From positions 5,458 through 69,457 of the forward strand of contig CAZPEP010000044.1 in assembly GCA_964585685.1 (NCBI GenBank): DNA of 64,000 nucleotides, given 5' to 3'. This document shows positions 9,321-53,003 of this stretch, in pieces. The stretch's first letter is position 1. Each line of letters begins with the position of its first letter. The notes under the pieces were generated by a model that was given only the letters and a program-made list of their open reading frames with translations, ran no database searches and was not told where the DNA came from. Both the position numbers and the translations under genes were made by a program. The stretch comes from an uncultured Eubacteriales bacterium. GTDB taxonomy: Bacteria; Acidobacteriota; Aminicenantia; Aminicenantales; Saccharicenantaceae.

Positions 9321-10469
9321 TTGTTTGAAACCATGAAATCCCCTCGCCTTCGACTCATCTTCCTCACGGCCTGCATCGGGCTATGCCTTTTCTTCGTCCT
9401 TGAGAGGAGTTTCCTTCCCGGCGTCCCGCAGAGGCCGTCCTTCAGGGGATTCGACCTGCTGGGCTCCGTTGCGCGTCTCGTCAAGAACGACTACCTCGAA
9501 GAGAGGGACCCGGCCCGGACGTTGGAGGGGGCTTGCCGGGGCCTCATCGATTCCCTTGACCCCGTCTCGAGCTATTTCGGCCGCGACGCCACGGCCAAGT
9601 ATCTCCGGCGGGATTCCCGCTGGGCCGATATCGGCGTCGTGCTCTTCAAGCGGTCCCACGGGCTGTTCCCTCAGGTCGCGGGGCTGGTGGAGGGCTCTCC
9701 AGCCGAAAAAGCCGGGGTCCGGCTCGACGATACCATCAGCGCCATGGACGGCCGGGGCACGCTCGACATGAGTTCCCTGGAAGCCAATCTCCACCTCAAG
9801 GATCTCGAACAGAAGCCGGTCGCCCTCAAGGTTGTCCGGGACGACAAGACCCTGGAGATCACGGTCCCGCGGGCCGTGATCTTCCCCGAGCCCTTCGCGT
9901 ACGCGGCGGAGGGCGCCTTCGCCGTCCTCGAGATCCACGGCCTTTACGCCCCATGCGTCGACGACATCGGGACCAAGGTCGTGCCGCTCCTTAAGGCCAG
10001 AAAGGCCCCTTATGTCCTTGACCTTAGGAACTGTTCCGAGGGCGAGATCGAGGAAGCGCAAAAGCTCCTTAACGTTTTCGTTCAATCGCCGAAGATCGGC
10101 GACTTCGAGAAGAAGGGCGGGATCAAAGAACCTGTCGCCTGCGCAGCCGCCCCCGACCTGGACCGGCTTCCCGTCGCTGTATGGGTCAACGGTGCAACGA
10201 TGGGGCCGGCCGAGCTCGTGGCGGCCGTCCTGCAGGAGACCCGGAAGGTCAGGGTCATCGGCGCCGCGACGCCGGGGCTCGTCTCGAGGCAGGAGCTGTT
10301 CCCTCTCGAGGACGACAGTTCCGTCCTCGTCACGTCGGGTGTTTTCACCCTCGCTTCGGGAAAGAAGCTCTGGGAGGAAGGCGTGACGCCGGACGACCGT
10401 CTCGACGCAGGAGACCAGGGCACCGCCGCCTACGTCAAGAGGACCTCGGCCCTCCTTCCCAAACGCTGA
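9321..10469 (+). CDS. S41 C-terminal processing (tail-specific) peptidase with PDZ domain
   Basis: N-terminal TM/signal segment. PDZ-like GLVEGSPAEKAGVRLDDTISAMDG. Peptidase S41 core downstream. Gene order envC-like / ctp / yibQ is a common envelope module. Confidence 0.75.
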   Translation: MFETMKSPRLRLIFLTACIGLCLFFVLERSFLPGVPQRPSFRGFDLLGSVARLVKNDYLEERDPARTLEGACRGLIDSLDPVSSYFGRDATAKYLRRDSRWADIGVVLFKRSHGLFPQVAGLVEGSPAEKAGVRLDDTISAMDGRGTLDMSSLEANLHLKDLEQKPVALKVVRDDKTLEITVPRAVIFPEPFAYAAEGAFAVLEIHGLYAPCVDDIGTKVVPLLKARKAPYVLDLRNCSEGEIEEAQKLLNVFVQSPKIGDFEKKGGIKEPVACAAAPDLDRLPVAVWVNGATMGPAELVAAVLQETRKVRVIGAATPGLVSRQELFPLEDDSSVLVTSGVFTLASGKKLWEEGVTPDDRLDAGDQGTAAYVKRTSALLPKR

Positions 10470-12206: not shown

Positions 12207-13178
12207 CTACAGGTCCAGGGGGTTCGGCTTCAAGATCTTGATGTAGCTCTTCTCCTTGAGAGTCTTGAGGTAATCCTCGAGCTTCTTCTGCTTTTTCTCG
12301 GAGTAGAGCTTCTCCTCGACTTCCTTCTTGACCTCTTCGAACGTCCTTAGCCGGCTGTCCTTCTTCTCCTCCAGCTTGAGGATGTACCAGCCGTTTTTCG
12401 TCTGTACCCAGTCGCTCGTCTCACCCGCTTTGAGCTTGGCCGCCGATTGTTCGAGGGCCTTGTCCAATTCGCCCTTCCGGAACCGGCCGAGGTCCCCTTC
12501 GGCCTCCTTCGCCGGGCCGTCCGAGTATTCTTTGGCCAGCGCGTTGAAGGGCTCCCCGGCCTTGACCTTGCCGGAGATGAGCTTCCGCGCCTCTTCCAGG
12601 GCCTCCGGGGCCTTCCCCTCCGTGGAGAGGTAGATCGCGCGGACATGGTATTCCTCGGGCTCCGTAAACTCCTCGGGATGGAGCTTGTAATAGCCGACGA
12701 TCTCCGAATCATCAAGGACGATCGTCCGGTCCACCTCGGAATAGATGGTGGCCTGCCTCAGCATGTTGTCCTCGAGCTGTTTAACCCACTGGGCATAATC
12801 CAGCCCCTGCTGCTGGAGGCCCCTCTTCAGGTCGTCGTCGGACTCGATGTTGTTCTCCTTCTTGATGTTGTCGACGGCCATCTTGACCTGATCAGAGACG
12901 TTAAGGTTCTTCTCCTTGGCCTGCTGCATGAGGAGCAGGTCGGTGATCATCATGTTCAGCATTTCGTTCTTCAGCATCTGGTACTGCTTCTCGTACTCCT
13001 CCCCCTGAAGGGCGGACCGGAGCTGCTGGACGGTAGCATCGAACTGTTCCTTGTACTGGCTCAGGGTGATGACGTCATCGTTGACGACGGCGACGATCTC
13101 TTCGACGACCTGCCCGACGGCAGGCGCCAGGAAAACGGCGAGCCCTAAGAGGGCGAAGACGGGAATTTTTTTTCTCAT
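12207..13178 (-). CDS. SurA-like periplasmic chaperone / parvulin-type peptidyl-prolyl isomerase
   Basis: Signal peptide. SurA_N-like region. Parvulin rotamase domain (HVRAIYL ... GDLGRFRKGEL ... GWYILKLEE). Confidence 0.75.
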   Translation of the reverse strand: MRKKIPVFALLGLAVFLAPAVGQVVEEIVAVVNDDVITLSQYKEQFDATVQQLRSALQGEEYEKQYQMLKNEMLNMMITDLLLMQQAKEKNLNVSDQVKMAVDNIKKENNIESDDDLKRGLQQQGLDYAQWVKQLEDNMLRQATIYSEVDRTIVLDDSEIVGYYKLHPEEFTEPEEYHVRAIYLSTEGKAPEALEEARKLISGKVKAGEPFNALAKEYSDGPAKEAEGDLGRFRKGELDKALEQSAAKLKAGETSDWVQTKNGWYILKLEEKKDSRLRTFEEVKKEVEEKLYSEKKQKKLEDYLKTLKEKSYIKILKPNPLDL

Positions 13179-14155
13179 GGGAGGTTCCTTTGATAAGCGA
13201 AGGGTAATCTGTCGGGGTGCGAGCTCCAGGCGAGGGTCCTCTTGAGCTCTTCCAGGTGCGCGGCCAAGGCGTCTTTGACCTTGCCGGCCAGGACCTTGAG
13301 ACGGATGGCCGGGACCGCTTCCGCTTCCGGGAGGAGTTGGGGCGGGAACTTCCGGTCCACCCGGAATATATGGTAGCCGTAGGAGGATTCGACAACGGGA
13401 CTGAGGCGACCTTCCTCGAGCGGAAACACGACCTTCTCCATCTCGAAGGGTAGGTTCCCCGCCTTGAAGACCCCCATGGCGCCCCCCTTGAAGGCTTCAG
13501 GGCCGATCGATTCCTCCCGGGCGATCTTTCGGAACTCCTCTTCGGAAGCGTTCCTGAGCCTGCGGAGGACCTCCACAGCTTCATTTTCGGTCTCGAGGAG
13601 GATCTGGCTCACCCGGACCCGCTCGGAGACCAGGAAGTCCCTTTTATTCTCCTCGTAGAAAGCATGGACCTCGTCGTCCCGGACGCTGAGGCTGGCGAGG
13701 AATCGGCCGGAATATTTTTCGATAAGGGGCCTGTCAAACAGGTGCGGATCTCCCTCCGTCATGGTACCAGTTTCTCCGGGCGGGGCCTCGCCGGAAAGCT
13801 TCGCCAGATAGGTCTTCTCCTCTTCGGACGTCAGTGTCACGCCCTGCCCGCGGGCCGCCGCGAGGAGGAGCTTTTCCTCGACGAATCTGTCGTAAAGGCG
13901 GCTCAGCGAGACGGGCGAGAGCTCGCCCTTCCCGGCGTTGTCCCGGACATACCGGTCCAGGTCCGAATTGCGGAATTCCGTCCCTTCGACCTCTAGGATG
14001 ACCGTCTCCGCGGCCTTCGCGCCTCCGGAGGCCGAAGCTCTTCCGGCCTTCCCCCGGTCCCCGCAGGCGGCAGCGCAGGCGAAGCCGAGGATCGCCACGA
14101 GGGCGGCCGGCGGGAAGGTTCTGGAAAACGGGGCTCTCATCTTTTTTATATTCAA
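13175..14155 (-). CDS. Parvulin-type peptidyl-prolyl isomerase (PrsA/SurA-like), second copy
   Basis: Lipoprotein-like N-terminus (LGFACAAAC). Parvulin domain (VRVSQILL ... GGAMGVFKAGNL ... YGYHIFRVD). Translationally coupled to the upstream SurA-like gene. Confidence 0.7.
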   Translation of the reverse strand: MNIKKMRAPFSRTFPPAALVAILGFACAAACGDRGKAGRASASGGAKAAETVILEVEGTEFRNSDLDRYVRDNAGKGELSPVSLSRLYDRFVEEKLLLAAARGQGVTLTSEEEKTYLAKLSGEAPPGETGTMTEGDPHLFDRPLIEKYSGRFLASLSVRDDEVHAFYEENKRDFLVSERVRVSQILLETENEAVEVLRRLRNASEEEFRKIAREESIGPEAFKGGAMGVFKAGNLPFEMEKVVFPLEEGRLSPVVESSYGYHIFRVDRKFPPQLLPEAEAVPAIRLKVLAGKVKDALAAHLEELKRTLAWSSHPDRLPFAYQRNLP

Positions 14156-17100
14156 TTCATTGTAGTATAACCGGTCAACTCCTTCAAGATGCCGATGGTT
14201 GCCTCCAGGAAATCTGCGTCCGCCGCCGCGCCGAGGGTCAGCGCCATGACTCCCTGCGGGGTCATCGACCCGCGGTGCTTCTTGAGGAGGGCCGGGACGC
14301 GGGCGAGGTCCACGCCAGTGGTCGGCTCGAACTTGAAGACGAGTCTGTCCCCCGCCCGGTCCAACGATTCGATCCTGAGCCGGACTGCCAAGAACTTGAT
14401 CGCGCCGTAGCGCATAAGGTTCCCGACGCTCGCCGGGAGGTCCCCAAACCTGTCCCGGATCTCGCCTCGGATCCGATCGATCTCGCCCAGGTCCTCGATG
14501 GAGGACAGCCGCTTGTATAGGTTGAGCCTGAGGTTCACCTGCGGCAGGTAGTCCTCGGGCACCCGAATATCGGCCTTGAGGTTGATCTCCGTCTTGACCT
14601 CCTCGACCACCTCCCCTTTCTGTTCGCGGATGGCCTGGTCGAGCAGATGCATGAAATATTCGTAGCCGACCGCCTCGATGGTCCCGCTCTGCCGGTGGCC
14701 GAGGAGGTTGCCGGCGCCGCGGATCTCGAGGTCCTTAGCTGCCAGCCGGAACCCGGAACCCAGCTCGGAGAACTCCTTAAGGGCCTTAAGCCGCTCCCGG
14801 GCGAGCGGCGTGAGCTCCGTCAGCGGGGGCACGAGGAAATATGCGGTGGCCTGGCGGGAGGAGCGGCCCACCCGACCGCGCAATTGATAGAGCTGGGCCA
14901 GCCCAAAGAGGTCGGCCCGGTCGACGATCAGGGTATTGACCAGGGGGATGTCAATGCCGTTCTCGATGATCGTCGTGGAGACGAGGACGTTGTATTCGCG
15001 GGCGATGAAAGCCATCATCCGCTTCTCGAGTGCGGCGCCGGACATTTGGCCGTGAATCGTGACGACCCGGGCCTGCGGGACCAGTTTTTCCACGAGGCGG
15101 GCCACCCGGTCGATGTCCTCGATGCGGTTGTGGACGTAAAAGACCTGTCCCCCACGGTTGAGTTCCTGGCGGACGGCCGAAGCCACGAGCTTGGCATTCC
15201 ACGGGGTCACGACGGTGTGGACGGACAACCGGTCCCGGGGCGGCGTCTCGATCAGGCTGATGTCCCTGAGCCCGGTCAGGGACATGTTGAGGGTCCGGGG
15301 GATCGGCGTTGCCGTTAGGGTCAAGACGTCGATGTTCGCCCTGAGGCCCTTGATCCTCTCCTTGTGACTGACGCCGAACCTCTGCTCTTCGTCGACGATG
15401 AGGAGCCCGAGGTCCTTGAAAACGACATCCTTGGAAAGGATCCGATGCGTCCCGACGAGGATGTCGACGAACCCTTTTCCGACGTCCCCGAGGACGGCCT
15501 TCTGCTCGATTCGGGATTGGAGCCGGGTCAGCCCCTCGACGCTCACCGGGAAGAGAACCATCCGGGCCTTGAACGTCTTGAGGTGCTGGCTCGCCAGGAC
15601 CGTGGTCGGGCAAAGGACGGCCACCTGTTTCCCGTCCATGACGGCCTTGAAGGCGGCGCGCATCGCAACCTCGGTCTTCCCATAGCCGACATCGCCGCAG
15701 AGCAGGCGATCCATGGGAGTTTCCGACTCCATGTCCTTTATGATCTCGCGAATGGACTTAAGCTGGTCCTCCGTCTCCTCGTGCTCGAAGATCTTTTCGA
15801 ACTCCGTCCCCCACAGACCCTCGGGGCTGAAGGATATGCCCCGGACCGACTTCCTCAGGGCGTAGAGCTCGAGGAGCTCCCGGGCGATAGCTTCGACGGC
15901 CTTTCTGGTCCGGGCCTTGGTCTTCTGCCACGTGATCGTCCCCAGCTTGTCGAGGGGGGGCGCGGCGTCGCCGGCCTTGGAAAATTTCTGGACGAGGTTC
16001 AGGTCCTCGACCGGGACAAGCAGCTTGTCGCCGTCGCGGTAGAGGAGCTCGATGAACTCCCGGGACCTTCCGTCGACCTCGACCCGCCGCAGGCCGTGGA
16101 AGATGCCGACGCCGTAATCCGTATGAACGACGAGGTCGCCGCTTTCGAGGTCCTGGAACTGGGAGAAGAAAGGCTTCCGGGAAGCACGATGGACGAGGAC
16201 CTTCTCCTCGGTGAAGATGTCCCGCTCGGCAAAGATGATGACCTTGGCCCGCGGATAAGCGAACCCTTCGCCCAGGCCGCCGAGGAGGAGGCTGATCTCA
16301 CCGCTCTTCGGAACGGCGAGGGGATCGGAGGATTCGATCGCCTGGATGCCGCTTTCCTCGAGCAGGGTGGCCAGCCTCTGCCGGGTGCCCTGGTTGGAGA
16401 GATAGACATAACAAAGCTCCCGTTCCCACTGGAGCTTCTTGAGGTATTCCAGGAAGAACCCGATCTTGTTTTCGAACTTTGGGACCGGCTGGAAGGCAAA
16501 CGAGACCGTCTTCCGATCCGGCTCGGCGACCAGTTCCTGGATGACGAGGGCGTCCCGGGAAACGGCCTTCCAGAGGGAGGGCGGGTAGATCGTCCCGGGC
16601 GGGAGGGCGAAGGTCCTGCTTCCCGCCAGTTCGCCGTGATGGCTCACGAGTTCCTCCCTGGCCTTTACCCATTCCCGCTCGATCTCGTCCCGGTCGTCGA
16701 GGATGAAAACGGAGTCCCCGAGATACCGGGTGAACGGGACGAACCGATCCGCGGCGAGGAGGGACAGATAGACGAACGAGGGGAGGTATTCGCCGCCCTC
16801 AAGGAAGCGAATCTTCTCCTCGAGGTCCGCCCGGGCCTCCCCGCCGGCCTTGCGGGCGAGCCGGACCCAGTCCTCAAGGAACTCGGGCGTGCCGGGGAAC
16901 TCCCGGAGGGAGGGCACGAGAGCCCGGTCCAGGCGGCGGAGCGAGCGTTGGGTACCCGTATCGAATTCTCTGAGCGAGGCCACTGTGTCGGCGGCGAACT
17001 CGATCCGGACGGGATTCGCCTGCCAGGGCGGAAAGACGTCCACGATACCGCCGCGCCAGGCGTATTCTCCGGGCGAAGCGATGATGTCCTCACGCGAATA

Positions 17101-21651: not shown

Positions 21652-22665
21652 ATGAAGAGGATACCGGTTTTATTGCTTGTTTTCGCATTCCTTTTCCCGA
21701 GCTGTAACCGTAAGGCCGAAAAAATGGTGCTCAAGGATGGCACCCCGGCCTTCAAGCTTGCCAGGGACCTGGCGGTCAAGATCCCCATGCTTGATCCCGT
21801 GGAGAATAATGTCCTCATCCGGACCCGGAAGTTTGACATAACGACCGGCGAGACCATACAGGTCCTCCTGGGGAACTTCGGGAATCAAACCGAACAGCTC
21901 AAGGAGTTCGACTCTATTCAACTGAGGGAGTCCATCGAGACCGCCGCCGTCGAGCTCGCCGAGAAAAAACTCCTGCTCCAAGAAGCCGAGAGGGCCAAGG
22001 TGTTCGTCGACCCCGCTGTCCTGGACGAGGTCATTAAGGCTGAACACGAGCGGCTCGGCGGCAAAGAGAAGTTCCTGGAGTCTCTAAAGACGATCGAAGT
22101 CGATGCCGAAACCATCATGAAGAGCCTTGCGGAACAGGTCCGGATAGATGCCTTCTTGGAGAAGACGCTGAACAAGAACGTTACCGTCACGGCTGAAGAA
22201 GTGGCCAGGACCTACGGAGAGGACCTGACGGCTTCCGTCCGCCACATCCTCCTTCTGACACAGGGAAAGACAGGGCCGGAAAAGACTAAAATCCGGAAGC
22301 GGATGGCGGGGATCCTGGCCAGGGCCCGATCCGGGGAGGACTTCGCTGAGCTGGCGAAACAGTACTCCGAAGAGCCGGGCAGCAAGGAGAGCGGGGGCAT
22401 GTATGCGGTCCTCCGCGGGATTACGGACAAGGCCTTTGAGGATGCCGCCTTCTCCGTTCCGATCGGCCAGATTAGCGACATCGTGGAAACGACCTATGGG
22501 TATCACATCCTCCAGATCATCAGCCGGGAGAAAGAGACCCGACCGTTTGACGAGGTCAAGGGCGAGATCGAAAAGCGTATCGCCGGGAGAAAGCGAAAAG
22601 TGATCTTGGACACCTTCCTGACAAAAATAAGGGACAAAGCAGGATTCAAGACCGTGGGCTTCTGA
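21652..22665 (+). CDS. Parvulin-type PPIase lipoprotein (PrsA-like), paralog 1
   Basis: Lipobox LFPSC. Parvulin domain (SVRHILLL ... YGYHILQI). About 60% identical to the 24203..25222 product. Lower GC than paralog 2. Confidence 0.75.
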   Translation: MKRIPVLLLVFAFLFPSCNRKAEKMVLKDGTPAFKLARDLAVKIPMLDPVENNVLIRTRKFDITTGETIQVLLGNFGNQTEQLKEFDSIQLRESIETAAVELAEKKLLLQEAERAKVFVDPAVLDEVIKAEHERLGGKEKFLESLKTIEVDAETIMKSLAEQVRIDAFLEKTLNKNVTVTAEEVARTYGEDLTASVRHILLLTQGKTGPEKTKIRKRMAGILARARSGEDFAELAKQYSEEPGSKESGGMYAVLRGITDKAFEDAAFSVPIGQISDIVETTYGYHILQIISREKETRPFDEVKGEIEKRIAGRKRKVILDTFLTKIRDKAGFKTVGF

Positions 22666-24202: not shown

Positions 24203-25222
24203 ATGATGAAGAGATTCGCGGCATTATCGCTCGCCTTGGCGTTCCTCCTCCCGGGTTGCGCTCGGAAGGCCGAGAACGTCGGGCTCAAGGAAGGAACGCC
24301 GGCTTTCCAGCTGGCCAAGGACCTTTCAGCCAAGGTCCCCTCGCTCGACCCGGCAGCCAACAACGTCCTCGTCAGGACTAAAAGGTTCAACGTCACCACC
24401 GGGGATGTCCTCCTGGCTCTCCGGGACAACGCGGGAACCCAGACCGCCCGGCTCAAGGACCTCGAAATCGCCCAGCTGAAATCGGTCATCGAGCGCACCG
24501 CCATTCAGTTCGCAGAGAAGGAGCTCCTGCTCAACGAGGCCATAAAGGCCAAGACCGCCGCTCCAGCCGGGTATCTGGAGAACACCCTCAAAGCCGAGTA
24601 TGAACAGGCCGGCGGGGAACAAAAGTTTCTCGACAACCTGAAGGCGAACGAGCTCGACATCGAACATATCAAGAAGAGCTTCGGTGAGCAGATCCTTATC
24701 AACGCCTTCCTTGAATCCAAGCTGTCCAAGGAAATCGCCGTCGCTCCCGAGGACGTCGCCAAGGCCTACGCGGAGGATAGGACAGCCTCCGTCCGGCACA
24801 TCCTCCTGCTGACGCAGGGGAAGACGGACACCGAGAAGACCGAGGCCCGCAAGAAGATCGAGGAGATCCTCGCCAAGGCCAAGGCCGGCGAGGATTTCGC
24901 CGCCTTGGCCAAGCAGTACTCCGAGGACCCGGGGTCCAAGGAAAACGGCGGCCTGTACGAGAATTTCGGCCGCGGGGCCATGGTCAAGCCGTTTGAGGAC
25001 GCCGCCTTCTCAGTTCCCGTCGGGGAGCTCAGCGGAATCGTGGAAACGACTTACGGCTACCACCTCCTGAAGATCGTCGACCGCAAGAAGGAGACCCGCG
25101 CGCTGGACGAGGCCAAGGGCGAGATCGAAGCGCAGCTCAAGCAGGGGAAACAGCAGGGGGCTTACACGTCCTTTATGACGAAGCTAAAGGAGAAAGCCGG
25201 CTTCAAGACCGTGGGCTTCTGA
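24203..25222 (+). CDS. Parvulin-type PPIase lipoprotein (PrsA-like), paralog 2
   Basis: Lipobox LLPGC. Parvulin domain. Same C-terminus (KAGFKTVGF) and conserved 3' flank as paralog 1. Confidence 0.75.
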   Translation: MMKRFAALSLALAFLLPGCARKAENVGLKEGTPAFQLAKDLSAKVPSLDPAANNVLVRTKRFNVTTGDVLLALRDNAGTQTARLKDLEIAQLKSVIERTAIQFAEKELLLNEAIKAKTAAPAGYLENTLKAEYEQAGGEQKFLDNLKANELDIEHIKKSFGEQILINAFLESKLSKEIAVAPEDVAKAYAEDRTASVRHILLLTQGKTDTEKTEARKKIEEILAKAKAGEDFAALAKQYSEDPGSKENGGLYENFGRGAMVKPFEDAAFSVPVGELSGIVETTYGYHLLKIVDRKKETRALDEAKGEIEAQLKQGKQQGAYTSFMTKLKEKAGFKTVGF

Positions 25223-38312: not shown

Positions 38313-38810
38313 TCAGGCGGACACGTCTTTCTCTCGGACGGTTTTGTCCTTCGTCCGGGATGGCTTCGGCTTGATCTTCTGGGATAGGCCCTCGATGACA
38401 GCATCGGAGTCGGGGAGATCCTCTTCGATATCCTCCTCGTCGTGGAGGAGCTGCATGACCGAAGCGACGAACTTATCCGGGTCGACAGGCTTTTCAAAAT
38501 AGTCGGCGGCGCCGAAGGACGACAGGGCTTCATGCTTGTACTGGGGCCCCCTATAAAGCCCTGTGACGATGATCACCGGAACGCGCCCCCCCGACTCCTG
38601 GGAAATTTTCTTGGTCAGGTCGAAGCCGTGGATCTTGGGGAGGATGGCTTCCAAGACGACGAGGTCGGGCTTCTCGGACTTGAACTTATCGTAGGCCGCC
38701 TGCCCGTCCGCGGCCTTGATGATCTGGACCTTCTGCGTTTTCAGAAGCTTGACCATCGCCTCGAGGCTCACGCTGTCGTAATCGACGATGAGAACTTTTT
38801 TCCCGATCAT
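38313..38810 (-). CDS. Stand-alone receiver (REC) domain protein with Glu at the phospho-acceptor position
   Basis: MIGKKVLIVDYD ... KPDLVVLE(54)AILP ... VIIVTG ... FEKP. The canonical Asp of the LVVLD motif is Glu. Real start at MIGKK (about 38810). Confidence 0.7.
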   Translation of the reverse strand: MIGKKVLIVDYDSVSLEAMVKLLKTQKVQIIKAADGQAAYDKFKSEKPDLVVLEAILPKIHGFDLTKKISQESGGRVPVIIVTGLYRGPQYKHEALSSFGAADYFEKPVDPDKFVASVMQLLHDEEDIEEDLPDSDAVIEGLSQKIKPKPSRTKDKTVREKDVSA

Positions 38811-38963
38811 GGCGCACCGCGTCCGATTGTATTTAAATTGGTCACGGATGTCAACGAACCCCGGGGCCTGCGGCGGCAACATGACGGGTGCCAAGGGGCG
38901 TATGGCGGGAACGGGTGACATAGGATAAAATGGCCCTGGTAGACTCGGTATCGAGGGACAGGA

Positions 38964-40517
38964 ATGCACCAGGCTTCGCAAACGGGAGCGTATATTGAAG
39001 AGATCTATGGGAAGCTGCTCGGCCGCAAGCCCGATAAAGAAGGTCTGGCCTACTACACCGGCAGGCTGGATCGGGGCGAGCTGACCCTGCCGGAATTCGT
39101 ACGCCAACTGAAAAATTCAACGGAGTACTGGCTGCGCCGTTTCCCCGGGGATATCCCACGACGAACCCTGGAAAATACAGTACTGAACGACCGCGAGACC
39201 CGGGAAAAAAGAACCGTCCTACAGTCCCGGCCCTATATCTTTAACATCGACTTGATCGGGATCTGCAATATGATCCCGCCCTGCAGCATGTGTTACAATT
39301 GGAAAAACGGCGTGGGGCCGCGTCATCATCGCGGGCTGAAGATCAAAGAGATCAAGCGTTTCGGTGAGCACCTGGAGTTGGCCCACGAGGTGATCAACTG
39401 CGGCATCGGCGAGCCCCTTCTCAACCGCGAGTTGATCCCCATCCTGCAGCTTTTCTATAATTGGGGCAAACCCTTCGGCTTTAACACCAACGGCCTCGCC
39501 CTCAGCCCAGCCATGACCGAGCGTATGGTCCCGTATTTTGAGATTCTGACCATCCTCTTCTCCCTGGACGCCGCCACGGGGGAAACTTACGCTAAGGTCA
39601 GGGGCCGCTTTTTCGACCGCGTGGTGAAGAACATCGCCTATTATAGCGCCAGAAGGCGAGAAGTGGCGCCTGATGGGCTCGCCTCTAAGACCGGAATCGT
39701 TTTCATGCCCATGCGCTGTAACCGCCACGAGACGGCCGACTTTATCCGTTTAGGGGCTCGCCTGGGTGTCGACGTTGTAGAGCTCCGGGCTCTGAACCAG
39801 ATCAATGAAAACTGGGTCGTCCGTCGCGGCGACTTCACCTTTAACTACCAACAGGAGATTCTCACCCCGGCCGAACTCGAAGAGATCAGACAGGAGGCGG
39901 CGGAAGTCGCCGTCTCTGAAGGAGTTCGCCTGGATTGCCAGTATCAGGTATCCCCGGAGAGCACCTTTTTCTTTTTTATCCCGCCCCAATACCGGGATCT
40001 GGGCATCCGCTGCATCCTGCCCTGGCGTTTCATCCTGCCCTATCAGAACGGCAATACTGTCCCATGCTGCTTCATCTCTGACGATCTCGGCGACTGGCGC
40101 AAAACCGGCCTAGAAAAACTGTGGAACGGCCCGTTCATGCAGAAGCTGCGGGGCCAGATGGCCACGGGGAACCTGCCCGGTTTGTGCCGCCGTTTCCCCT
40201 CCTGCCCGGTGGTACAGGCCACGCTGTCCGAGGAAAAGCGCCTCCATTCCGGATCCGTTAGCCCGCCGGTCATTCCCCCGGCGATGGATATCTCCGCAAT
40301 GCAGCCGGCCTTGCGGATGAGGGCGTCGCAGAAGCAAACCTTTATGAAACATGCCGTCCATGCGTTGAGGAAACGCTTCAATTTGGAATTGAACCACAGC
40401 CTGGGCGAGCTGTTCGCACGCCAGGAGAAGATCAATCGCGACCTAGCCGAGGAGGTCGAACGCCTGAAGGCCGAGGTAGCGGAAGTGCGCCGGGAGAAGG
40501 ATAAACAGCAGGGCTGA
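38964..40517 (+). CDS. DUF4214 - radical SAM - SPASM-like domain protein with C-terminal coiled-coil module
   Basis: N-terminal DUF4214 signature (LLGRKPDKEGLAYYTGRLDRGELTLPEFVRQLKNSTEY). Cys cluster CNMIPPCSMC (CX5CX2C). C-terminal Cys-rich SPASM/twitch-like region (VPCCF ... CRRFPSCP). About 50-aa coiled-coil tail. Confidence 0.65.
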   Translation: MHQASQTGAYIEEIYGKLLGRKPDKEGLAYYTGRLDRGELTLPEFVRQLKNSTEYWLRRFPGDIPRRTLENTVLNDRETREKRTVLQSRPYIFNIDLIGICNMIPPCSMCYNWKNGVGPRHHRGLKIKEIKRFGEHLELAHEVINCGIGEPLLNRELIPILQLFYNWGKPFGFNTNGLALSPAMTERMVPYFEILTILFSLDAATGETYAKVRGRFFDRVVKNIAYYSARRREVAPDGLASKTGIVFMPMRCNRHETADFIRLGARLGVDVVELRALNQINENWVVRRGDFTFNYQQEILTPAELEEIRQEAAEVAVSEGVRLDCQYQVSPESTFFFFIPPQYRDLGIRCILPWRFILPYQNGNTVPCCFISDDLGDWRKTGLEKLWNGPFMQKLRGQMATGNLPGLCRRFPSCPVVQATLSEEKRLHSGSVSPPVIPPAMDISAMQPALRMRASQKQTFMKHAVHALRKRFNLELNHSLGELFARQEKINRDLAEEVERLKAEVAEVRREKDKQQG

Positions 40518-40556
40518 GCGATTGACTTTCCACGGGGCCTCTCATACAATCAGGCC

Positions 40557-40853
40557 ATGGAACGCCCGGAAATGCTTGCCCGCATTGCCGCGATCAAAGC
40601 CGAGGTCGACGCGGCCAACCCCGACATCATCCGCCGCCTGATCACCGGGCACCGCGTCTTCGTTCAGACATCGCACCGGGCCTCCCTTCCAGCCAGGCTG
40701 ATCAACAGCATCCGGCGGAAACTGCTCTTCGAGGTGGAGCGGGGGCTGGAGCCCGCGTTCGAGCGGCAGCGGGAGATCAACCTGCGCCTGCTCAAGGAGA
40801 TCGAGGCCCTTAAAGTGGCGCTGGAGCAAAAGGGGCATGGCGCCTGCGGCTGA
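40557..40853 (+). CDS. Small coiled-coil protein (98 aa) carrying the recurrent RQ-x2-IN ... EIE-x-LK module
   Basis: Same strand and operon context as flanking genes. C-terminal motif matches the tail of the preceding rSAM enzyme and the 43121..43648 protein. Confidence 0.45.
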   Translation: MERPEMLARIAAIKAEVDAANPDIIRRLITGHRVFVQTSHRASLPARLINSIRRKLLFEVERGLEPAFERQREINLRLLKEIEALKVALEQKGHGACG

Positions 40854-41925
40854 AGCTCGGGCCGAAGCCGGCCGCTCTCTGACCATCGCCGTCTGTGCGC
40901 CTCAGGTGCCTTTCGTCAGCGGCGGAGCCGAGGAGCACGTGGCCTCCCTGTGCCGGGAGTTGCGCGTCCGGGGTCACCGGGTGGAGCTGATCACCCTCCC
41001 TTACAAATGGTATCCCCGGGCCCAGTTATGGCGCAGCATGAAGATGTGGGAAATGGCCGACCTGAGCGAAGCGAACGGTCTCAAGATCGACCTGGTCATC
41101 GCCACCAAGTTTCCGTCCTATTTCGTTCACCACAGCCGCCAGGTGCTGTGGCTAATCCATCAATACCGTCAACTCTACGATCTCTACGGCACCCCGTATT
41201 CGGAATACACTCCGAACCGGTGGCGCGACCGTCGGCTCCACCGCCGCTTCGTGGCCCGCGATACAGCCGCGCTTGCCCGTTTTGCCAAACGTTTCACCAA
41301 TTCGGACAACACCCGGCAACGGATGTACAGATACAACGGGTTGGAGGCCGAGACCCTCTACCACCCCCCCAAGCTGGCCGATCGCCTTCAATGTCTGGAA
41401 TACGGCGATTACATTCTTTCGGTGGGCCGTTTGGACCAGCTCAAGAGGACCGAAGGCCTGATCCATGCTTTGGCGCGGACGAAGTCTGCGGTCCGGGCCG
41501 TGATCGCCGGAACCGGGCCCGAAGAGCACGGCCTCAAGCAGCTGACCCGTGACCTGGGCCTTACGGCGCGGGTGGAGTTTCCCGGATATGTCGATGACGA
41601 TCGTCTGATCGACCTTTATGGCCGCTGCCTGGCCGTTTTTTTCGCTCCGCTCGACGAGGATTACGGGTACGTCACCTTGGAGGCCTTCCTAGCCGCCAAA
41701 CCCGTTCTGACCTGCAGCGACTCCGGCGGGTCCTTGGAATTCGTGGCTCACGAACGGAACGGGTTCGTTCTGCCGCCCGGAGATTGGGCCGCGGCGGCTT
41801 CCTGCATCGACCGCCTCTACCGCGACCGTGAGCTCTGCCGGAGCCTGGGCGCAACCGGCAGGGCAGCGGTGAGCGCCCTCACGTGGGATCATGTGCTTAC
41901 CCGATTGCTGGAGGGAGCGGTATGA
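40837..41925 (+). CDS. Glycosyltransferase family 4
   Basis: GT-B fold. C-terminal EX7E-type region (TLEAFLAAKPVLTCSDSGGSLEFVAHERNGFV). Confidence 0.8.
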   Translation: MAPAAEARAEAGRSLTIAVCAPQVPFVSGGAEEHVASLCRELRVRGHRVELITLPYKWYPRAQLWRSMKMWEMADLSEANGLKIDLVIATKFPSYFVHHSRQVLWLIHQYRQLYDLYGTPYSEYTPNRWRDRRLHRRFVARDTAALARFAKRFTNSDNTRQRMYRYNGLEAETLYHPPKLADRLQCLEYGDYILSVGRLDQLKRTEGLIHALARTKSAVRAVIAGTGPEEHGLKQLTRDLGLTARVEFPGYVDDDRLIDLYGRCLAVFFAPLDEDYGYVTLEAFLAAKPVLTCSDSGGSLEFVAHERNGFVLPPGDWAAAASCIDRLYRDRELCRSLGATGRAAVSALTWDHVLTRLLEGAV

Positions 41926-43124
41926 AGATCGCCTGGTTCAGCCCGCTTTCCCCCGTACCGAGCGGTATCGCCGATTATAGCGAAGAGCTGCTGCCGAGCC
42001 TCGCCCGGCATGCGAGCATCGATATCTATATCGACCCCTCCTACACCCCGAGCAATGCCGGGATCGCCCGTTCTTTCTCCATCCGGCCGTTCGACCCGAG
42101 GGCTTTCAAGGCCGAGGATTATGACCGCATCGTGTATCATATGGGCAACGACTTCTTGGCCCACCGCTATATCCATGAAGCCATGCTGCGCTTTCCCGGG
42201 GTGGTAGTCCTCCACGATCTCGTGCTGATGGGCTTCTACGCCGCCCGCCAGGGTGCCGGCAGGGACTTCCCCGGCTTCATCCGCTTCCTGCAGCAGTTGT
42301 ACCCGGATAAAGCGGCTTGGATAGGAGAGCAGTGTGCCGGTCGCTACCCCTTTCCGCTCTGGGAAAGCAGGATGGCGCTGCAACTGCCGATGAACGAAGA
42401 GGTCTGCCGCCTGGCCGCGGGCGTCATCGCCCATTCCCATTACGTCATGGCACGGCTCTGGCTGCAGGACGGAAAACCCGCCGCCGTCATCCCCCACCAT
42501 GGCCACCCCACCCATCCCTTCGACCGGGAGGCGATTCGGGCCGGGCTCGGCGTGAAGCCAGAACAGATCTTCCTCGTCTCCACCGGATATGTCACCCGCA
42601 ATAAGCGCTATGGCCTGGTGTTGGACGTATTGAAGGAGCTGGGCCGGCCCGACCTGAGCTACCTGATCGTGGGCCGCGACGACGACGGCATTTTGCCGCG
42701 GATGCTGAACACCGGCCGGCCTGACGTGCAAACCCGGGGATTCGCGCCCTTGGCGGAGTTGGAACAGATGATCGCCGCCTGCGATATCGGCATAAACCTG
42801 CGCAATCCCACCATGGGCGAAAGCTCCGGATCTCTCCTGCGCATGATGAGCTACGGCCGGCCGGTCATCGTGAGCGACAGTGGTTCCTACAGCGAGATTC
42901 CCGATCATTGTGCCGTCAAGATCGATACCGGGATCGATGAAAAGGAAATGCTCAAAGATTTCATCGTTGCCCTGGCCGATGGCCCCGACTTGCGGGCCGC
43001 CCTGGGCCGCGAGGCGGCGCGCTATGCCGGCGAAACATGCGGCATCGACCGTTGTGCCGACATGTACGCAGCGTTTCTGCGCGACATGCAACCCGTGCGC
43101 CCGGCGCGGAGGGAACCTCGATGA
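41922..43124 (+). CDS. Glycosyltransferase family 4
   Basis: Start at MKIAWFS (41922; the ORF-track start is over-extended). GESSGSLLRMMSYGRPVIVSD donor-binding motif. Confidence 0.75.
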   Translation: MKIAWFSPLSPVPSGIADYSEELLPSLARHASIDIYIDPSYTPSNAGIARSFSIRPFDPRAFKAEDYDRIVYHMGNDFLAHRYIHEAMLRFPGVVVLHDLVLMGFYAARQGAGRDFPGFIRFLQQLYPDKAAWIGEQCAGRYPFPLWESRMALQLPMNEEVCRLAAGVIAHSHYVMARLWLQDGKPAAVIPHHGHPTHPFDREAIRAGLGVKPEQIFLVSTGYVTRNKRYGLVLDVLKELGRPDLSYLIVGRDDDGILPRMLNTGRPDVQTRGFAPLAELEQMIAACDIGINLRNPTMGESSGSLLRMMSYGRPVIVSDSGSYSEIPDHCAVKIDTGIDEKEMLKDFIVALADGPDLRAALGREAARYAGETCGIDRCADMYAAFLRDMQPVRPARREPR

Positions 43125-43648
43125 GCGAGATGAATCAGAACAAAACGGACATCAGCGGGAGGCTGCAGGGACTGCGCCGGGAATTCGCCCTCCGGGCGGA
43201 AGGGGCCGGAACCATCGAAGCCATTGCCGGCGGCCCGGTGGACCGCGATCTTCCGCCGGATTACTGGGGCTTTACCGATGAAGACTTGGAAAACGAACTT
43301 TGGAACCGCCTCCTCGAGTTGGACCGGGCCCCGCTTGACCCGGCTCAGGCCATGGATATCCCGCCCGGCAGCCTTTCACCGGCCAAGCACGGTCTATCGG
43401 GAAAGATCAAAGGCGGATTCAAGAACCTTCTGCTGCAGCTGGCCAAGCCCCTGGTGCGTATTACGCTGGCGAGGCAAGGCAATCTGAACCGCCAACTCGA
43501 ACACCTCCAATTCATCCAGTTCCTGGCGGTCAAGCAACTGCGTCAGCGCCTGCAGCGGCTGGAACGTGAGAATCGCGATCTGCGCTTCCGCTTGGCCGAA
43601 CTGGAAATCGAGAATGCCCCCGATGGAGAGACCTCCGGCCATGAGTGA
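43121..43648 (+). CDS. Coiled-coil protein (about 175 aa) with C-terminal recurrent module
   Basis: Start MSEMNQ overlaps the preceding GT4 stop as ATGA. C-terminal LARQGNLNRQLEHLQ ... RLERENRDLRFRLAELE coiled coil. Confidence 0.5.
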   Translation: MSEMNQNKTDISGRLQGLRREFALRAEGAGTIEAIAGGPVDRDLPPDYWGFTDEDLENELWNRLLELDRAPLDPAQAMDIPPGSLSPAKHGLSGKIKGGFKNLLLQLAKPLVRITLARQGNLNRQLEHLQFIQFLAVKQLRQRLQRLERENRDLRFRLAELEIENAPDGETSGHE

Positions 43649-45032
43649 GCGTTCCCCGGCCGAACGGCCGGCCCGACATGCTCCGGCAGGGCGGGTTTGG
43701 GAAAAGGCATTTCTGAAGCGGATCGCCGAACAGGGACAGGCGGGAACCTGGGAATACGCGCGGGCCATCACCGAGTGCCTGCAAACTTCGGTGGCGAGCT
43801 CCGACCTGTTGGACCGGATCGGCAACGCCATTGCCGATCGCGCAGGTCTTCGCACCGCCATCAATACCGTCGACCTCTGCCAGCTGCTGCTCGGACTGAG
43901 AAAGCCGCGCATCGCCATCTACGACCACACCTGGCAGTTCATCGGCGGGGCGCAGAAATACGGCGCCACGCTGGCCGAAGCCTTGCAGGATATGGGCGAG
44001 ATCACCTTGATCGGAAATCGCCCCTTCTCCACCGAGCAGCTGTCCGCCTGGTACCGGCTGGATCTCAAGGATTGCTCCAGCCGCCTGATAGCCCTCCCCT
44101 TTTTCGAGGAAAAGGGCGGTGATTATATCGATCCCGCCGAGATCGTCTCGCGCGCCATGGCCAATCCGTTTCATGCCGTCAGCCGGGCGACTCTGGGCTA
44201 CGACCTCTTCATCAACAATGGCATGTTGGAAATGGTCTTGCCCCTGGCCACCCGCTCTATCTTCATCACTCACTTCCCGGAACGGCGGGCGCGCAGCTAT
44301 TTCTACGTGGACCGCTACGACCGCGTTGTGTGCAACAGCCGCTATACCGCCGGCTGGATCGAAAAGCGTTGGGGGCTCGAACCCCATGTTCAAATCTATC
44401 CCCCCGTCGACATGCCGGGGCCGCGCCCTGAAAACAAGGAGCCGATCATCCTGTCGGCAGCGCGCTTCGATCCCGGGGGGAACAAGCAACAGCTCGACAT
44501 GATCCGCGTTCTTCAAGCGCTCATCCGCCGTCACGCCCGGGCCAGCCGCGGCTGGCGCTTGATCCTTGCCGGCGGCAGCCATGGCGATAACCCATATCTC
44601 CATCAGGTACAACAGTTCCTGACGGACAACCCTGGTCTGCCGGTGGAGCTGCGGGTGAACATCTCGGCGGCCGAGCTTCAGGAATTGTATCGCCGGGCCT
44701 CCCTGTTCTGGCATTTCTGCGGTCTGGGACAAAGCGACCCGGCCCTTGTGGAGCATTTCGGCATGACCGTTGCCGAGGCTATGCAGAGCGGCTGCATTCC
44801 CCTGGTCTTCGATGGCGGCGGCATGCGCGAGATCGTCCGATCCGCAGAGAATGGCTATCTTTTCTCAAGCCTCGTCGAATTGGTCGGCGTCACCGCCAGG
44901 CTGTTCGACAGGCCCGCGTTGCGTGCCAACCTGGCCGAGGCGGCCTGGAACGCCGGACGGGCTTTCGCTAAAGAGATTTTCGCCGGACGCGTGCGGGCCC
45001 TGGTCCGGGAGCTGCTGGCCCCGGCGCCATAA
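43641..45032 (+). CDS. Glycosyltransferase family 4
   Basis: Start MSERSP overlaps the previous stop as ATGA. EHFGMTVAEAMQSGCIPLVFDGGG motif. Confidence 0.75.
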   Translation: MSERSPAERPARHAPAGRVWEKAFLKRIAEQGQAGTWEYARAITECLQTSVASSDLLDRIGNAIADRAGLRTAINTVDLCQLLLGLRKPRIAIYDHTWQFIGGAQKYGATLAEALQDMGEITLIGNRPFSTEQLSAWYRLDLKDCSSRLIALPFFEEKGGDYIDPAEIVSRAMANPFHAVSRATLGYDLFINNGMLEMVLPLATRSIFITHFPERRARSYFYVDRYDRVVCNSRYTAGWIEKRWGLEPHVQIYPPVDMPGPRPENKEPIILSAARFDPGGNKQQLDMIRVLQALIRRHARASRGWRLILAGGSHGDNPYLHQVQQFLTDNPGLPVELRVNISAAELQELYRRASLFWHFCGLGQSDPALVEHFGMTVAEAMQSGCIPLVFDGGGMREIVRSAENGYLFSSLVELVGVTARLFDRPALRANLAEAAWNAGRAFAKEIFAGRVRALVRELLAPAP

Positions 45033-45114: not shown

Positions 45115-46083
45115 ATGAACATAACAGGACGGATAGAGATTTCCTTGGTCATCCCCGTCTATAACGAGGAGGAAAGCCTCCCCGAGCTTTATGAACAGCT
45201 CGGCCGGGTCTGCCCCGGCCTGGGGAAACATTACGAGATCATATTTGTCGACGACGGGAGCACCGATGGCTCTTTCGAGGTCCTGACGCGCCTCCGGGCG
45301 GGAGACCCGCGGGTCAAGATCATCCGGTTCCGGAGGAACTTCGGCCAGACGGCCGCCCTGGCCGCAGGGTTCGACAACGCCCGGGGGGAGGTCATCGTCA
45401 CCCTGGACGCCGACCTCCAGAACGATCCCGCCGATATCGCCGCCCTCATCGGGAAGATCGACGAAGGCTTCGACATCGTCTCGGGTTGGAGGAAAAACCG
45501 GAAGGACCGGTTCCTGTCCCGGAGACTCCCCTCCATCCTGGCGAACCGCCTCATCTCCCGATTCACGGGGGTCAAGCTTCACGATTACGGCTGCACGCTC
45601 AAGGCCTTCCGTAAGGAAGTCGTCAAGAACATCAGCCTCTACGGCGAGCTTCACCGGTTCATCCCGGCCATCGCCAGCACGATGGGCGTCTCCATCGCCG
45701 AGATCGAGGTCCGCCACCGGCCCCGCCTGAAGGGCAAGTCCAAGTACAATATCATGAGGACCCCCAAGGTCCTCCTGGACCTCCTAACGGTCAAGTTCCT
45801 CCTGAGCTATTCGACCCGCCCCCTGCAGATCTTCGGCCTGTTCGGCATGGCCGGCGGCCTGGCGGGCGGGGTCATGGGCCTCTGGCTTTCGTACGAGAGG
45901 CTCGTCCTCAAGCACAGTATCGCCAACCGGCCCCTGCTCCTCCTGGCTGTTCTGCTTGTCGTCATCGGCATCCAGTTCATCACTCTCGGCCTCCTGGCCG
46001 AGATCATGGTCCGCGCCTACCACGAATCCTCCGCTAAGAAGATCTACCACATCAAGGAAACCGTCGAATCCGACCGGCCATGA
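45115..46083 (+). CDS. GT2 polyprenyl-phosphate glycosyltransferase (ArnC/GtrB-like) with two C-terminal TM helices
   Basis: SLVIPVYNEEESL, DDGSTDGS and DADLQNDP (DXD) motifs. C-terminal membrane anchor. Preceded by an AT-rich promoter-like gap (45033..45114). Confidence 0.85.
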   Translation: MNITGRIEISLVIPVYNEEESLPELYEQLGRVCPGLGKHYEIIFVDDGSTDGSFEVLTRLRAGDPRVKIIRFRRNFGQTAALAAGFDNARGEVIVTLDADLQNDPADIAALIGKIDEGFDIVSGWRKNRKDRFLSRRLPSILANRLISRFTGVKLHDYGCTLKAFRKEVVKNISLYGELHRFIPAIASTMGVSIAEIEVRHRPRLKGKSKYNIMRTPKVLLDLLTVKFLLSYSTRPLQIFGLFGMAGGLAGGVMGLWLSYERLVLKHSIANRPLLLLAVLLVVIGIQFITLGLLAEIMVRAYHESSAKKIYHIKETVESDRP

Positions 46084-52025: not shown

Positions 52026-53003
52026 ATGACGAAGCTCGAGTACTACCGGAGGCTGTGGGCCATCTTCCGGGCCTACAGGAAGAGGGAAACGATCCTCCCC
52101 TATCTCCCCATCCGGCTCTGGATCGAACCGACGAGTTTCTGCAACCTCAAGTGCGTCATGTGCCCGAACAAGGACCTTGACCGGAGGGACAAGGGCTATA
52201 TGCCGCTCGAGCTCTTCCGGAAGATCGTCGACGAGGCCGCCGGGTTCGTCCACGAGGCCAACCTCATCCACCGAGGCGAATCCCTCCTTCACCCGGATTT
52301 CTTCGAGATGGTCCGGGCCGCGAGCGCGGCGGGGATCGTGACCAAGCTCCACACGAACGCCACACTCCTTGACGCAGACAAGGCCCATCGGCTTATCGAA
52401 GCGGGGCTCCATCAGCTGACCTTCTCCTTCGACGGCTACGACAAGGCCACCTACGAGCGCATCCGGGTCAACGGCACGTTCGAGAAGACCATCGAGAACA
52501 TCCGCAGCTTCCACCGGGTGCGGAAAGAGCTCGGGGCGAAGAGGCCGCGCACGATCCTGGAGCTCATCGATTTCCCCGATATCTACCGGAACGTCGGCCG
52601 GCAGGAAAAGCGGGCATTCCTCGAAAGATTCAAGGAATTCCCGCCGGACAGGATCCGGATCAAGGACATGCATAACTGGGCGGGCGATATCGGCGGACCG
52701 GGAAAGGGCCGGACGTACGCACCGTGCACGTTCCCCTGGGCGTCCCTCATCGTCTTCTGGGACGGCCGGGTCCTCCCGTGCACCCAGGATTTTTTCGGGG
52801 ACCTCGCGGTCGGCGACGCCGGCAAGTCGTCCTTGGCCGACATTTGGAACGGCGAGCGCATGGTCGAGATCCGAAAAAGGGCCGCCGAAGGGGATATCAA
52901 GGACCTCGCCCCGTGCTCGGCCTGCGACCGGCCCTGGCGGGAAACGTTCCTCGGGGTGCCCAGGGAATACATCTGGAAGCTCCTCCTGCGCCGGATGCCC
53001 TGA
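52026..53003 (+). CDS. Radical SAM / SPASM-domain protein
   Basis: Canonical CNLKCVMCP (CX3CX2C). C-terminal auxiliary-cluster cysteines (CTFPW ... LPCTQD ... APCSACDRP). Confidence 0.8.
   Translation: MTKLEYYRRLWAIFRAYRKRETILPYLPIRLWIEPTSFCNLKCVMCPNKDLDRRDKGYMPLELFRKIVDEAAGFVHEANLIHRGESLLHPDFFEMVRAASAAGIVTKLHTNATLLDADKAHRLIEAGLHQLTFSFDGYDKATYERIRVNGTFEKTIENIRSFHRVRKELGAKRPRTILELIDFPDIYRNVGRQEKRAFLERFKEFPPDRIRIKDMHNWAGDIGGPGKGRTYAPCTFPWASLIVFWDGRVLPCTQDFFGDLAVGDAGKSSLADIWNGERMVEIRKRAAEGDIKDLAPCSACDRPWRETFLGVPREYIWKLLLRRMP

Follow-up and report, generated by a model that had tools for sequence, protein, structure and literature searches.

What is the helical tail at the end of a radical S-adenosylmethionine (rSAM) enzyme doing in a glycan-synthesis operon, and why does it resemble the small protein encoded by the next gene? 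The question arises from a 64-kb window, the whole stretch of DNA that was analysed here (64,000 nucleotides, positions 5,458 to 69,457 of contig CAZPEP010000044.1 in assembly GCA_964585685.1), which comes from an uncultured bacterium. Within the window a tightly packed operon on the + strand runs in the order rSAM enzyme, a 98-residue protein (o98), GT4a, GT4b, a 175-residue protein (o175) and GT4c, where GT4 denotes a glycosyltransferase of family 4. A preliminary description, made from the letters of the sequence, had noticed a pattern shared by the rSAM tail, o98 and the C-terminus of o175, and had read it as a coiled-coil module that might tether or space the enzymes or act as a ruler of chain length. 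Comparison with related loci and protein families indicates that the shared element is a helical module of about 45-55 residues, without a family name, whose three copies differ greatly in how closely they resemble one another.

The relationship between the first two copies is visible at every level of comparison. Copy 1 is the C-terminal tail of the rSAM enzyme (residues 449-509, ALRMRASQKQTFMKHAVHALRKRFNLELNHSLGELFARQEKINRDLAEEVERLKAEVAEVR; 40308..40490, + strand) and copy 2 occupies residues 33-93 of o98 (RVFVQTSHRASLPARLINSIRRKLLFEVERGLEPAFERQREINLRLLKEIEALKVALEQKG; 40653..40835, + strand). The two align without a gap across 56-61 residues, and their Smith-Waterman score of 71 compares with 28.9±5.5 for 1000 shuffles (z = 7.7), none of which (0/1000) reaches 71. 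With family alignments taken from 34 related loci, hhalign matches the tail family to the o98 family over 61 columns with E = 4.6e-12 and a probability of 97.6%. These comparisons confirm that copies 1 and 2 are clearly homologous, and the pattern that the preliminary description saw in both is borne out. No DNA-level repeat was found between the module copies, which points to an old homology at the level of the protein, and o98 members at 45% identity have the E-[IL]-N-H-x-L stretch of the rSAM tails, which suggests that the tail stems from an o98-like ancestor and is not a recent copy of its neighbour.

The approximate consensus of the module can be written as S-x-R-x2-L-x-G-x2-I-x2-L-R-R-[RK]-L-x2-E-…-L-x-P-x3-x-Q-x-E-I-N-x-R-L, followed by further helix. 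In the rSAM enzyme it is separated from the catalytic body by a Pro/Ser-rich linker of ~40 residues. In o98, the AlphaFold2 model calculated from a 23-sequence alignment consists of an N-terminal helix (residues 3-19 and 22-30), a low-confidence linker and a continuous helix over residues 44-95, this last part with a predicted local distance difference test score (pLDDT) of 75-91; the whole model has a mean of 74.5 and a predicted template modelling score of 0.38. The hydrophobic moment, calculated from column-averaged hydrophobicity, is strongest (1.11) at a period of 3.67 and weak (0.49) at 3.5. The module is thus predicted to be a long amphipathic helix with hendecad-like periodicity and not a canonical heptad coil, so that of the coiled coil proposed at the outset the single long helix finds support in the model and a heptad spacing finds little in the hydrophobic moment. 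The N-terminal half of the helix is basic and hydrophobic, with the RR[RK] cluster, and the C-terminal half is Glu-rich. Across the three families and the remote matches a Gln is invariant and an Asn nearly invariant; the first falls on the hydrophobic seam, the second at its edge.

Copy 3, at residues 87-128 of o175 (PAKHGLSGKIKGGFKNLLLQLAKPLVRITLARQGNLNRQLEH; 43379..43504, + strand), is a remote one. Pairwise comparison of o175 with the rSAM tail and with o98 does not rise above chance (Smith-Waterman z = 1.35 and -1.04), and HMMER profiles made without the o175 family do not detect o175 in the window. At the profile-profile level the outcome is different. The combined o98 and tail profile matches the o175 family by hhalign with E = 1.3e-3 in a single fixed register (L-x-G…[KR][KR]…Q-x2-L-N), and the score of 23.2 stands above a column-shuffle null of 11.2±2.5 (maximum 18.7 in 150 shuffles) and above the 10.6 of the reversed profile. 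A bridging profile, composed of the three repeats of the protein P0084 together with P0079 and P0087, all chosen from a large protein database by the o98 and tail profile alone, gives E = 9.3e-6 and a probability of 83%, with a score of 34.3 against a null of 10.4±1.8 (maximum 16.9) and 15.1 for the reversed alignment. Measured against shuffled controls, therefore, the likeness of tail and o98 exceeds chance sequence by sequence and that of o175 does so between profiles. The third copy claimed in the preliminary description is in this sense partly confirmed, as one that appears real and very diverged, the evidence for it being profile-profile statistics and gene context.

Of the two o175 stretches quoted in support of that claim, LARQGNLNRQLEH falls within residues 87-128, and RLERENRDLRFRLAELE belongs to a separate generic coil (RLERENRDL…) that is not part of the module. 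This C-terminal coil (LQFIQFLAVKQLRQRLQRLERENRDLRFRLAELEIE; 43505..43612, + strand) lies outside the shared element and has generic coil similarity only; it is also the highest-confidence part of the o175 model. The model, a single-sequence AlphaFold2 prediction of low confidence (mean pLDDT 58) used for helix boundaries only, gives one helix over residues 94-164.

The small open reading frames (ORFs) that carry the module are, on the evidence of their conservation, real genes. The o98 family comprises 33 database clusters at 60-95% identity, all of them 93-111 residues long, and the further members at 45% identity lie in syntenic loci. Substitutions in o98 are biased to the third codon position, and the ratio of non-synonymous to synonymous substitution rates (dN/dS) is 0.28-0.46 for o98, 0.24-0.34 for the tail module and 0.12-0.14 for the rSAM body. 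The tail family retains 20 invariant columns among rSAM orthologues of 62-82% identity. The conserved length across 33 or more clusters and the dN/dS values argue for genuine genes, and purifying selection is indicated for both the o98 gene and the tail module.

The known families offer no name for these proteins. Neither Pfam (E ≤ 0.1) nor NCBIfam (E ≤ 0.01) contains a family for o98. The exact o175 sequence is on record, labelled 'hypothetical protein', and has no NCBIfam match; its 203-residue longest-ORF form gives only a sub-threshold match to Pfam DUF4600 (E = 0.049, 14.3 bits against a 27-bit cut-off). P0084 and another remote relative, P0072, match no Pfam family, and profile searches of the PDB sequences with the module and with the o175 family, to E = 10, list at best unrelated coiled coils at E ≥ 0.2.

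An exhaustive HMMER scan of 1.84 billion representatives finds 36 proteins at E ≤ 1e-3, most of them stand-alone proteins of 95-126 residues, together with one rSAM representative and one further rSAM fragment. A word-indexed database search with a generic module alignment returned known members only and no new fusions, a tblastn search of the PLSDB plasmids with the triple-module protein P0084 gave no match, and among the 4278 ORFs of all the loci compared the module hidden Markov model (HMM) matches only the module families. The genome matches are labelled Candidatus Aminicenantes, or 'uncultured Clostridia/Eubacteriales' on third-party bins. The family is small and confined to uncultivated lineages, including genome bins labelled Aminicenantes. 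In two loci from ERZ250395xx assemblies (L035, L036) many cassette genes are split into short overlapping ORFs, probably through assembly indel errors, which would account for database entries that look like stand-alone 'tail' proteins and are spurious (P0050, P0054 and, in all likelihood, more of those with 52-73 residues). The stand-alone 'tail' ORFs of 52-73 residues (P0043-P0054) were set aside as probable frameshift or assembly errors; the two that were inspected are on contigs with fragmented rSAM and GT4 genes, which overlap the tail ORF.

The gene order gives the module its most informative setting. The o98 gene (40557..40853, + strand), a conserved stand-alone gene whose product has an N-terminal helix, a linker and the long module helix, starts 39 nt past the end of the rSAM gene and overlaps by 17 nt the gene for GT4a (40837..41925, + strand; 362 residues, Pfam Glycos_transf_1 E = 1.6e-30). 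GT4a in turn overlaps GT4b by 4 nt (ATGA), the likely start of GT4b (41922..43124, + strand) being ATG 41922, with the longest ORF beginning at GTG 41883. The gene for o175 (43121..43648, + strand), whose product is modelled as helical, starts in a further ATGA overlap of 4 nt with the GT4b stop, and itself overlaps by 8 nt the gene for GT4c (43641..45032, + strand; likely start 43641, longest ORF from GTG 43566). GT4b and GT4c were assigned from Pfam GT4 matches, and the C-terminal domains of all three enzymes (Glycos_transf_1 / Glyco_trans_1_4) score above the Pfam gathering thresholds, with 106 bits for GT4a, 30-31 for GT4b and 56 for GT4c. GT4b and o175 are each preceded by a GGAGG-type site. 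In locus L001, whose o98 is 62% identical, the overlaps of 17 nt and 8 nt recur, and the arrangement argues for translational coupling of the small module proteins to the GT4 genes. The statement that the module lies each time immediately upstream of a GT4 gene holds for o98 and o175 and does not hold for the rSAM tail, which lies upstream of o98. Thus o98 strongly combines the R-R-[RK]…Q-x2-[IL]-N core profile with adjacency to a GT4 gene, o175 does so through profile-profile similarity only, and the rSAM tail shares the sequence and lacks the adjacency.

Beyond the window, the cassette o98-GT4a-GT4b-o175-GT4c is found in every locus with sufficient downstream sequence, at o98 identities as low as 45%, and a GT4 gene stands directly 3' of o98 wherever downstream sequence exists. 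The cassette is kept with or without the rSAM gene, which is restricted to the clade nearer the window and missing from many loci; o98 is found without any rSAM gene in L005, L006, L010, L013, L015, L023/24 and L028-L034.

The remote relatives extend this association, as all module-bearing proteins with readable context are encoded directly upstream of a GT4 gene. P0075 and P0060 have GT4a orthologues directly 3' at 57-67% identity (57% in L041/L042, 67% in L043), and two GT4 genes follow P0072. P0084 (L037, 8001-9158), a protein of 385 residues, contains three tandem modules (LLGPLIVWVRR…ERQ.VFNR) and overlaps the downstream GT4 gene by 4 nt. In the same locus, at 15606-16265, a 219-residue protein upstream of a GT4 gene has by eye a layout like that of o175 (…GGLVRRFKAAL…KQAAVNQ… and a C-terminal coil) and is HMM-negative. 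The weakest match, P0087 (L040), has a GT4c orthologue 2 nt downstream (36% identity, E = 1.6e-94), so that in L040 an o98-like module occupies the slot before GT4c that o175 has in the window. P0079 (L038) joins an o98-like N-terminus and a coil to a class I methyltransferase; it is the fusion to another enzyme for which a search had been proposed. At L038 861-7756 the genes run from a B12-binding radical SAM protein through P0079 to orthologues of GT4a (45% identity, E = 8e-119) and GT4b (29%, E = 1e-69) and then to a multi-pass membrane protein of 581 residues without a Pfam match. A stretch resembling SHR-x-LG…QQ-x-EFN may be present at the N-termini of many methyltransferases of polysaccharide clusters, a distribution for which P0079 and P0084 are the support found here.

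Natural variants show how the copies have been altered. In L002 (around 9700-9889), L016, L017 and L018, four assemblies of one lineage, a Glu codon inside the rSAM tail module has become a stop codon (RKRFNL*LNY…) and the module codons past it are otherwise intact; to judge from these sequences the tail seems to be dispensable in this lineage, or to have been lost recently. In L007 and L009 (5743-5958 in each) the entire rSAM body is deleted in frame, leaving a 65-residue ORF (P0078) made of the first ~21 rSAM residues (…ETYAAEIYMKLLGR) and the distal 44 residues of the module (LELNHS…), still just upstream of the o98 gene. The o175 helix varies in a different manner: several o175 genes contain two or three copies of an 11-residue unit, ITLEKQDRLNR, that covers the Q..LN core. 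The gene of L014 has a 33-nt repeat of 3.3 units (8936-9044) and a 21-nt repeat of 4 units in the linker (8757-8839), and repeats of the unit are also found in L002, L010, L011, L013 and L018. The region of the window has no tandem repeats and holds the repeated units as single copies. The result is a polymorphism in the length of the o175 helix by hendecad units.

What, then, might the module be for? The explanation favoured here, for which belief and doubt are about evenly balanced, is that it serves for protein-protein docking, as a helix on which a GT4 complex assembles, and that tailoring enzymes have borrowed it. The native form would be a small stand-alone subunit made in step with its GT4 partner, namely o98 with GT4a and the diverged o175 with GT4c. 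The amphipathic helix, with a buried polar layer of Gln and Asn, would pair with the cognate GT4, with another module or with both, and this pairing would keep the three GT4 enzymes joined in a single assembly line. Within one clade the upstream sugar-tailoring rSAM enzyme would have acquired the module on a flexible Pro-rich linker and would thereby dock on the GT4 complex, and in another lineage a methyltransferase may have acquired it likewise, as in P0079. The Gln/Asn pair on or beside the hydrophobic face suggests specific helix-helix pairing; buried Asn layers occur in coiled coils. The fusions to the rSAM enzyme and, in P0079, to the methyltransferase argue that the module is portable to other enzymes. 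Physical binding, the identity of the partners and the existence of a complex are what we infer from sequences and gene order, and the tether put forward in the preliminary description fits the comparative evidence, that is the coupling to GT4 genes, the conserved cassette, the remote GT4 adjacency and the P0079 fusion. A bolder version, tentative and in our judgement rather doubtful, treats the module as a portable 'GT4-docking tag': o98 and o175 would be obligate small subunits of particular GT4s, the SPASM rSAM enzyme and the class I methyltransferase would have captured the tag independently, and the hendecad polymorphism of o175 would tune the spacing of the complex.

Several observations weigh against a docking function. 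The rSAM tail appears to be dispensable in nature, given the nonsense codon of the L002/L016-18 lineage and the many loci that lack the rSAM gene. Because these clusters are rich in GT4 genes, adjacency alone tells less than it seems to, a difficulty that the orthology of the partners offsets in part. Copy 3 is so diverged, being HMMER-negative, that a function common with the other copies is an assumption, and single-chain AlphaFold2 models cannot show the binding that we infer. Binding to a membrane surface would, moreover, agree just as well with the basic and hydrophobic character of the module's N-terminal half.

This last point leads to an alternative that we regard as unlikely while taking it seriously, in which the module, and especially its N-terminal half (LLGRLINxLRRRLL), would rest against the membrane on its cytoplasmic side and bring the GT4s and the rSAM enzyme to a lipid-linked substrate, as the C-terminal helix of WbdD does. 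A helix that is amphipathic at a period of 3.6-3.67 is what one expects on a surface and not in a heptad coil, the conserved RR[RK] cluster sits beside hydrophobic residues, and WbdD itself combines a membrane amphipathic helix with a polymerase-recruiting site (PMC11231755). The Glu-rich C-terminal half (E27, E29, E33, E37, E40, E41, E49 and E51 of the consensus) would however sit poorly on anionic membranes; conservation is highest at the polar Gln and Asn, which lie on the hydrophobic face or next to it and suggest specific helix-helix contacts; and in P0084 three modules are strung together in one soluble-looking protein. The possibility that the module is nothing but a relic, the tail being a functionless leftover of a partial o98-like duplication captured when the rSAM gene was inserted and copy 3 a generic helical similarity, gains something from the stop codon that cuts the tail in one lineage, from the frequent loss of the rSAM gene and from the invisibility of copy 3 to pairwise and HMMER comparison. 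It sits badly with the invariant columns and the dN/dS of the tail at the observed divergence of the rSAM orthologues, with profile-profile scores for copy 3 above all 150 column shuffles and the reversed control, and with the o98-like module that replaces o175 before the GT4c orthologue of L040, and we consider it very unlikely. Slightly less probable still is a reading after the manner of the ribosomally synthesised and post-translationally modified peptides (RiPPs), with o98 as the peptide substrate of the adjacent rSAM/SPASM enzyme and the tail as a leader-like recognition element. SPASM/twitch rSAM enzymes frequently act on peptides as maturases, proteins of this kind are among the best NCBIfam similarities, the small ORF follows the rSAM gene at 39 nt, and some o98 members end in …GxCG. 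Yet o98 tracks the GT4 genes and not the rSAM gene, being without one in many loci; its C-terminal Cys is not conserved (…GARG, …DQPR) and the conserved part is a long helix; and the Pfam scan found no RiPP recognition element domain, the N-terminus of the rSAM enzyme being DUF4214. The precursor reading of o98 was rejected on these grounds of co-occurrence and conservation.

The remaining alternative, a chain-length ruler or spacer in which the helices set the distance from the polymerising GT4s to a terminating or modifying rSAM enzyme and so fix the length of the glycan, has to be weighed against the systems that inspired it, and we hold it to be improbable. In the WbdD–WbdA system of E. 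coli O9a and Klebsiella O3 the terminator carries a coiled coil and its C-terminal region recruits the GT4 mannosyltransferase polymerase (PMC11231755, PMC3482155). The Klebsiella O4, O7 and O12 terminators (ORF7-O4, ORF6-O7, WbbB) are likewise coiled-coil proteins, with modular and variably distributed glycosyltransferase and terminator domains, and belong to O-antigen systems dependent on ATP-binding cassette (ABC) transporters in which the ruler function was shown experimentally (PMC11231755). That known terminators unite coiled coils with the recruitment of glycosyltransferase polymerases is one argument for a ruler here, and the natural polymorphism of the o175 helix, with one, two or three 11-residue units, is another. 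As with WbdD–WbdA, a tailoring enzyme bears a helical non-catalytic extension and GT4 enzymes are its presumed partners; as with the Klebsiella proteins, the helical element occurs free or fused to different catalytic modules (here the rSAM enzyme, and the methyltransferase in P0079) and the activities reside on several polypeptides that have to come together. Unlike the much longer ruler of WbdD, however, the helix of the module has only ~50 residues, of constant length in the o98 and tail families, and a period of 3.67, and the main form of the module is a separate small protein instead of part of a terminator. No homology to the Klebsiella terminators was detected, and the context of the module gives no indication of a ruler function.

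The genes that such a system needs were also sought. Pfam and NCBIfam scans of the large ORFs found no wzm/wzt, no wzx/wzy and no kinase/methyltransferase terminator in the 64-kb window, the only ABC_tran match being UvrA, and PDB profile searches to E = 10 list neither WbdD nor WbbB nor any other ruler protein. No terminator domain accompanies the helix, since the sole helix-bearing enzyme is the rSAM protein, with its ~50-residue helix after a flexible linker, and in many lineages the cassette is present without it. With no transporter, terminator or sequence similarity, a short helix and a non-heptad period, the module falls outside the WbdD/WbbB group on every point that can be compared, and the analogy with a WbdD-style ruler and with Wzt, which the preliminary description drew, is not upheld. 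Among known systems the coiled-coil O-antigen terminators are the closest analogues of the module, with a resemblance that is functional only.

The rSAM enzyme itself (517 residues; 38964..40517, + strand) is the first gene of the operon and has a DUF4214–radical SAM–SPASM/twitch architecture, with Pfam DUF4214 at residues 7-54 and SPASM at 350-409 (E = 2e-6); orthologues carry PF04055. NCBIfam rSAM families match it below their cut-offs only, equivalog scores being far below. Its catalytic body belongs with the SPASM/twitch rSAM enzymes ('MoaA/NifB/PqqE/SkfB family radical SAM enzyme'). It departs from that group in general by the DUF4214 at its N-terminus, by a C-terminal module that has a homologue in the small protein encoded next door, and by a gene context of glycan synthesis in place of peptide or cofactor maturation. 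A literature search on DUF4214, rSAM and glycosyltransferases returned nothing relevant, and the fusion of an rSAM enzyme to such a module, for which Pfam and NCBIfam have no models, is as far as checked an arrangement not described before, in agreement with the preliminary description.

Further genes lie around the cassette. The genes 3' of GT4c encode an ArnC-like GT2, a fourth GT4, an epimerase, a GT9, a GT2, KsgA, a second rSAM-SPASM enzyme and a GDSL protein. The ArnC-like GT2 (45115-46083, +) matches NF007986 at 250 bits, below the cut-off, and suggests that a polyprenyl-phosphate sugar serves as donor when a sugar is transferred in the periplasm. The second rSAM-SPASM enzyme (52026-53003, +) is shorter, with 325 residues, and has neither DUF4214 nor the tail. 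Divergent from the glycan operon, a gene at 38313-39107 (-) encodes a response-regulator receiver protein. Its N-terminus is extended by ~100 residues, Pfam recognises no output domain in it, and its longest ORF overlaps the start region of the rSAM gene. Elsewhere in the window are four paralogues of SurA/PpiC-type peptidyl-prolyl isomerases, two of them adjacent (12207-14155, -; 21652-22665, +; 24203-25222, +), and, unrelated to the module, a 1002-residue TPR–CHAT protein (1170-4178, -; CHAT E = 2e-70).

If docking is the function of the module, it would explain why the tail of the rSAM enzyme resembles the neighbouring protein, and two families of small proteins, conserved but so far labelled 'hypothetical', would acquire a function. 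In ABC-transporter-dependent O-antigen systems it is the coiled-coil terminators that organise complexes of GT4 and tailoring enzymes; a docking module would supply a rule, recognisable in sequence, for complexes of soluble GT4 and tailoring enzymes outside those systems, and a short tag by which further enzymes could be brought to a glycan assembly line. The o98-type module would then be a narrow family doing, presumably, a familiar job.

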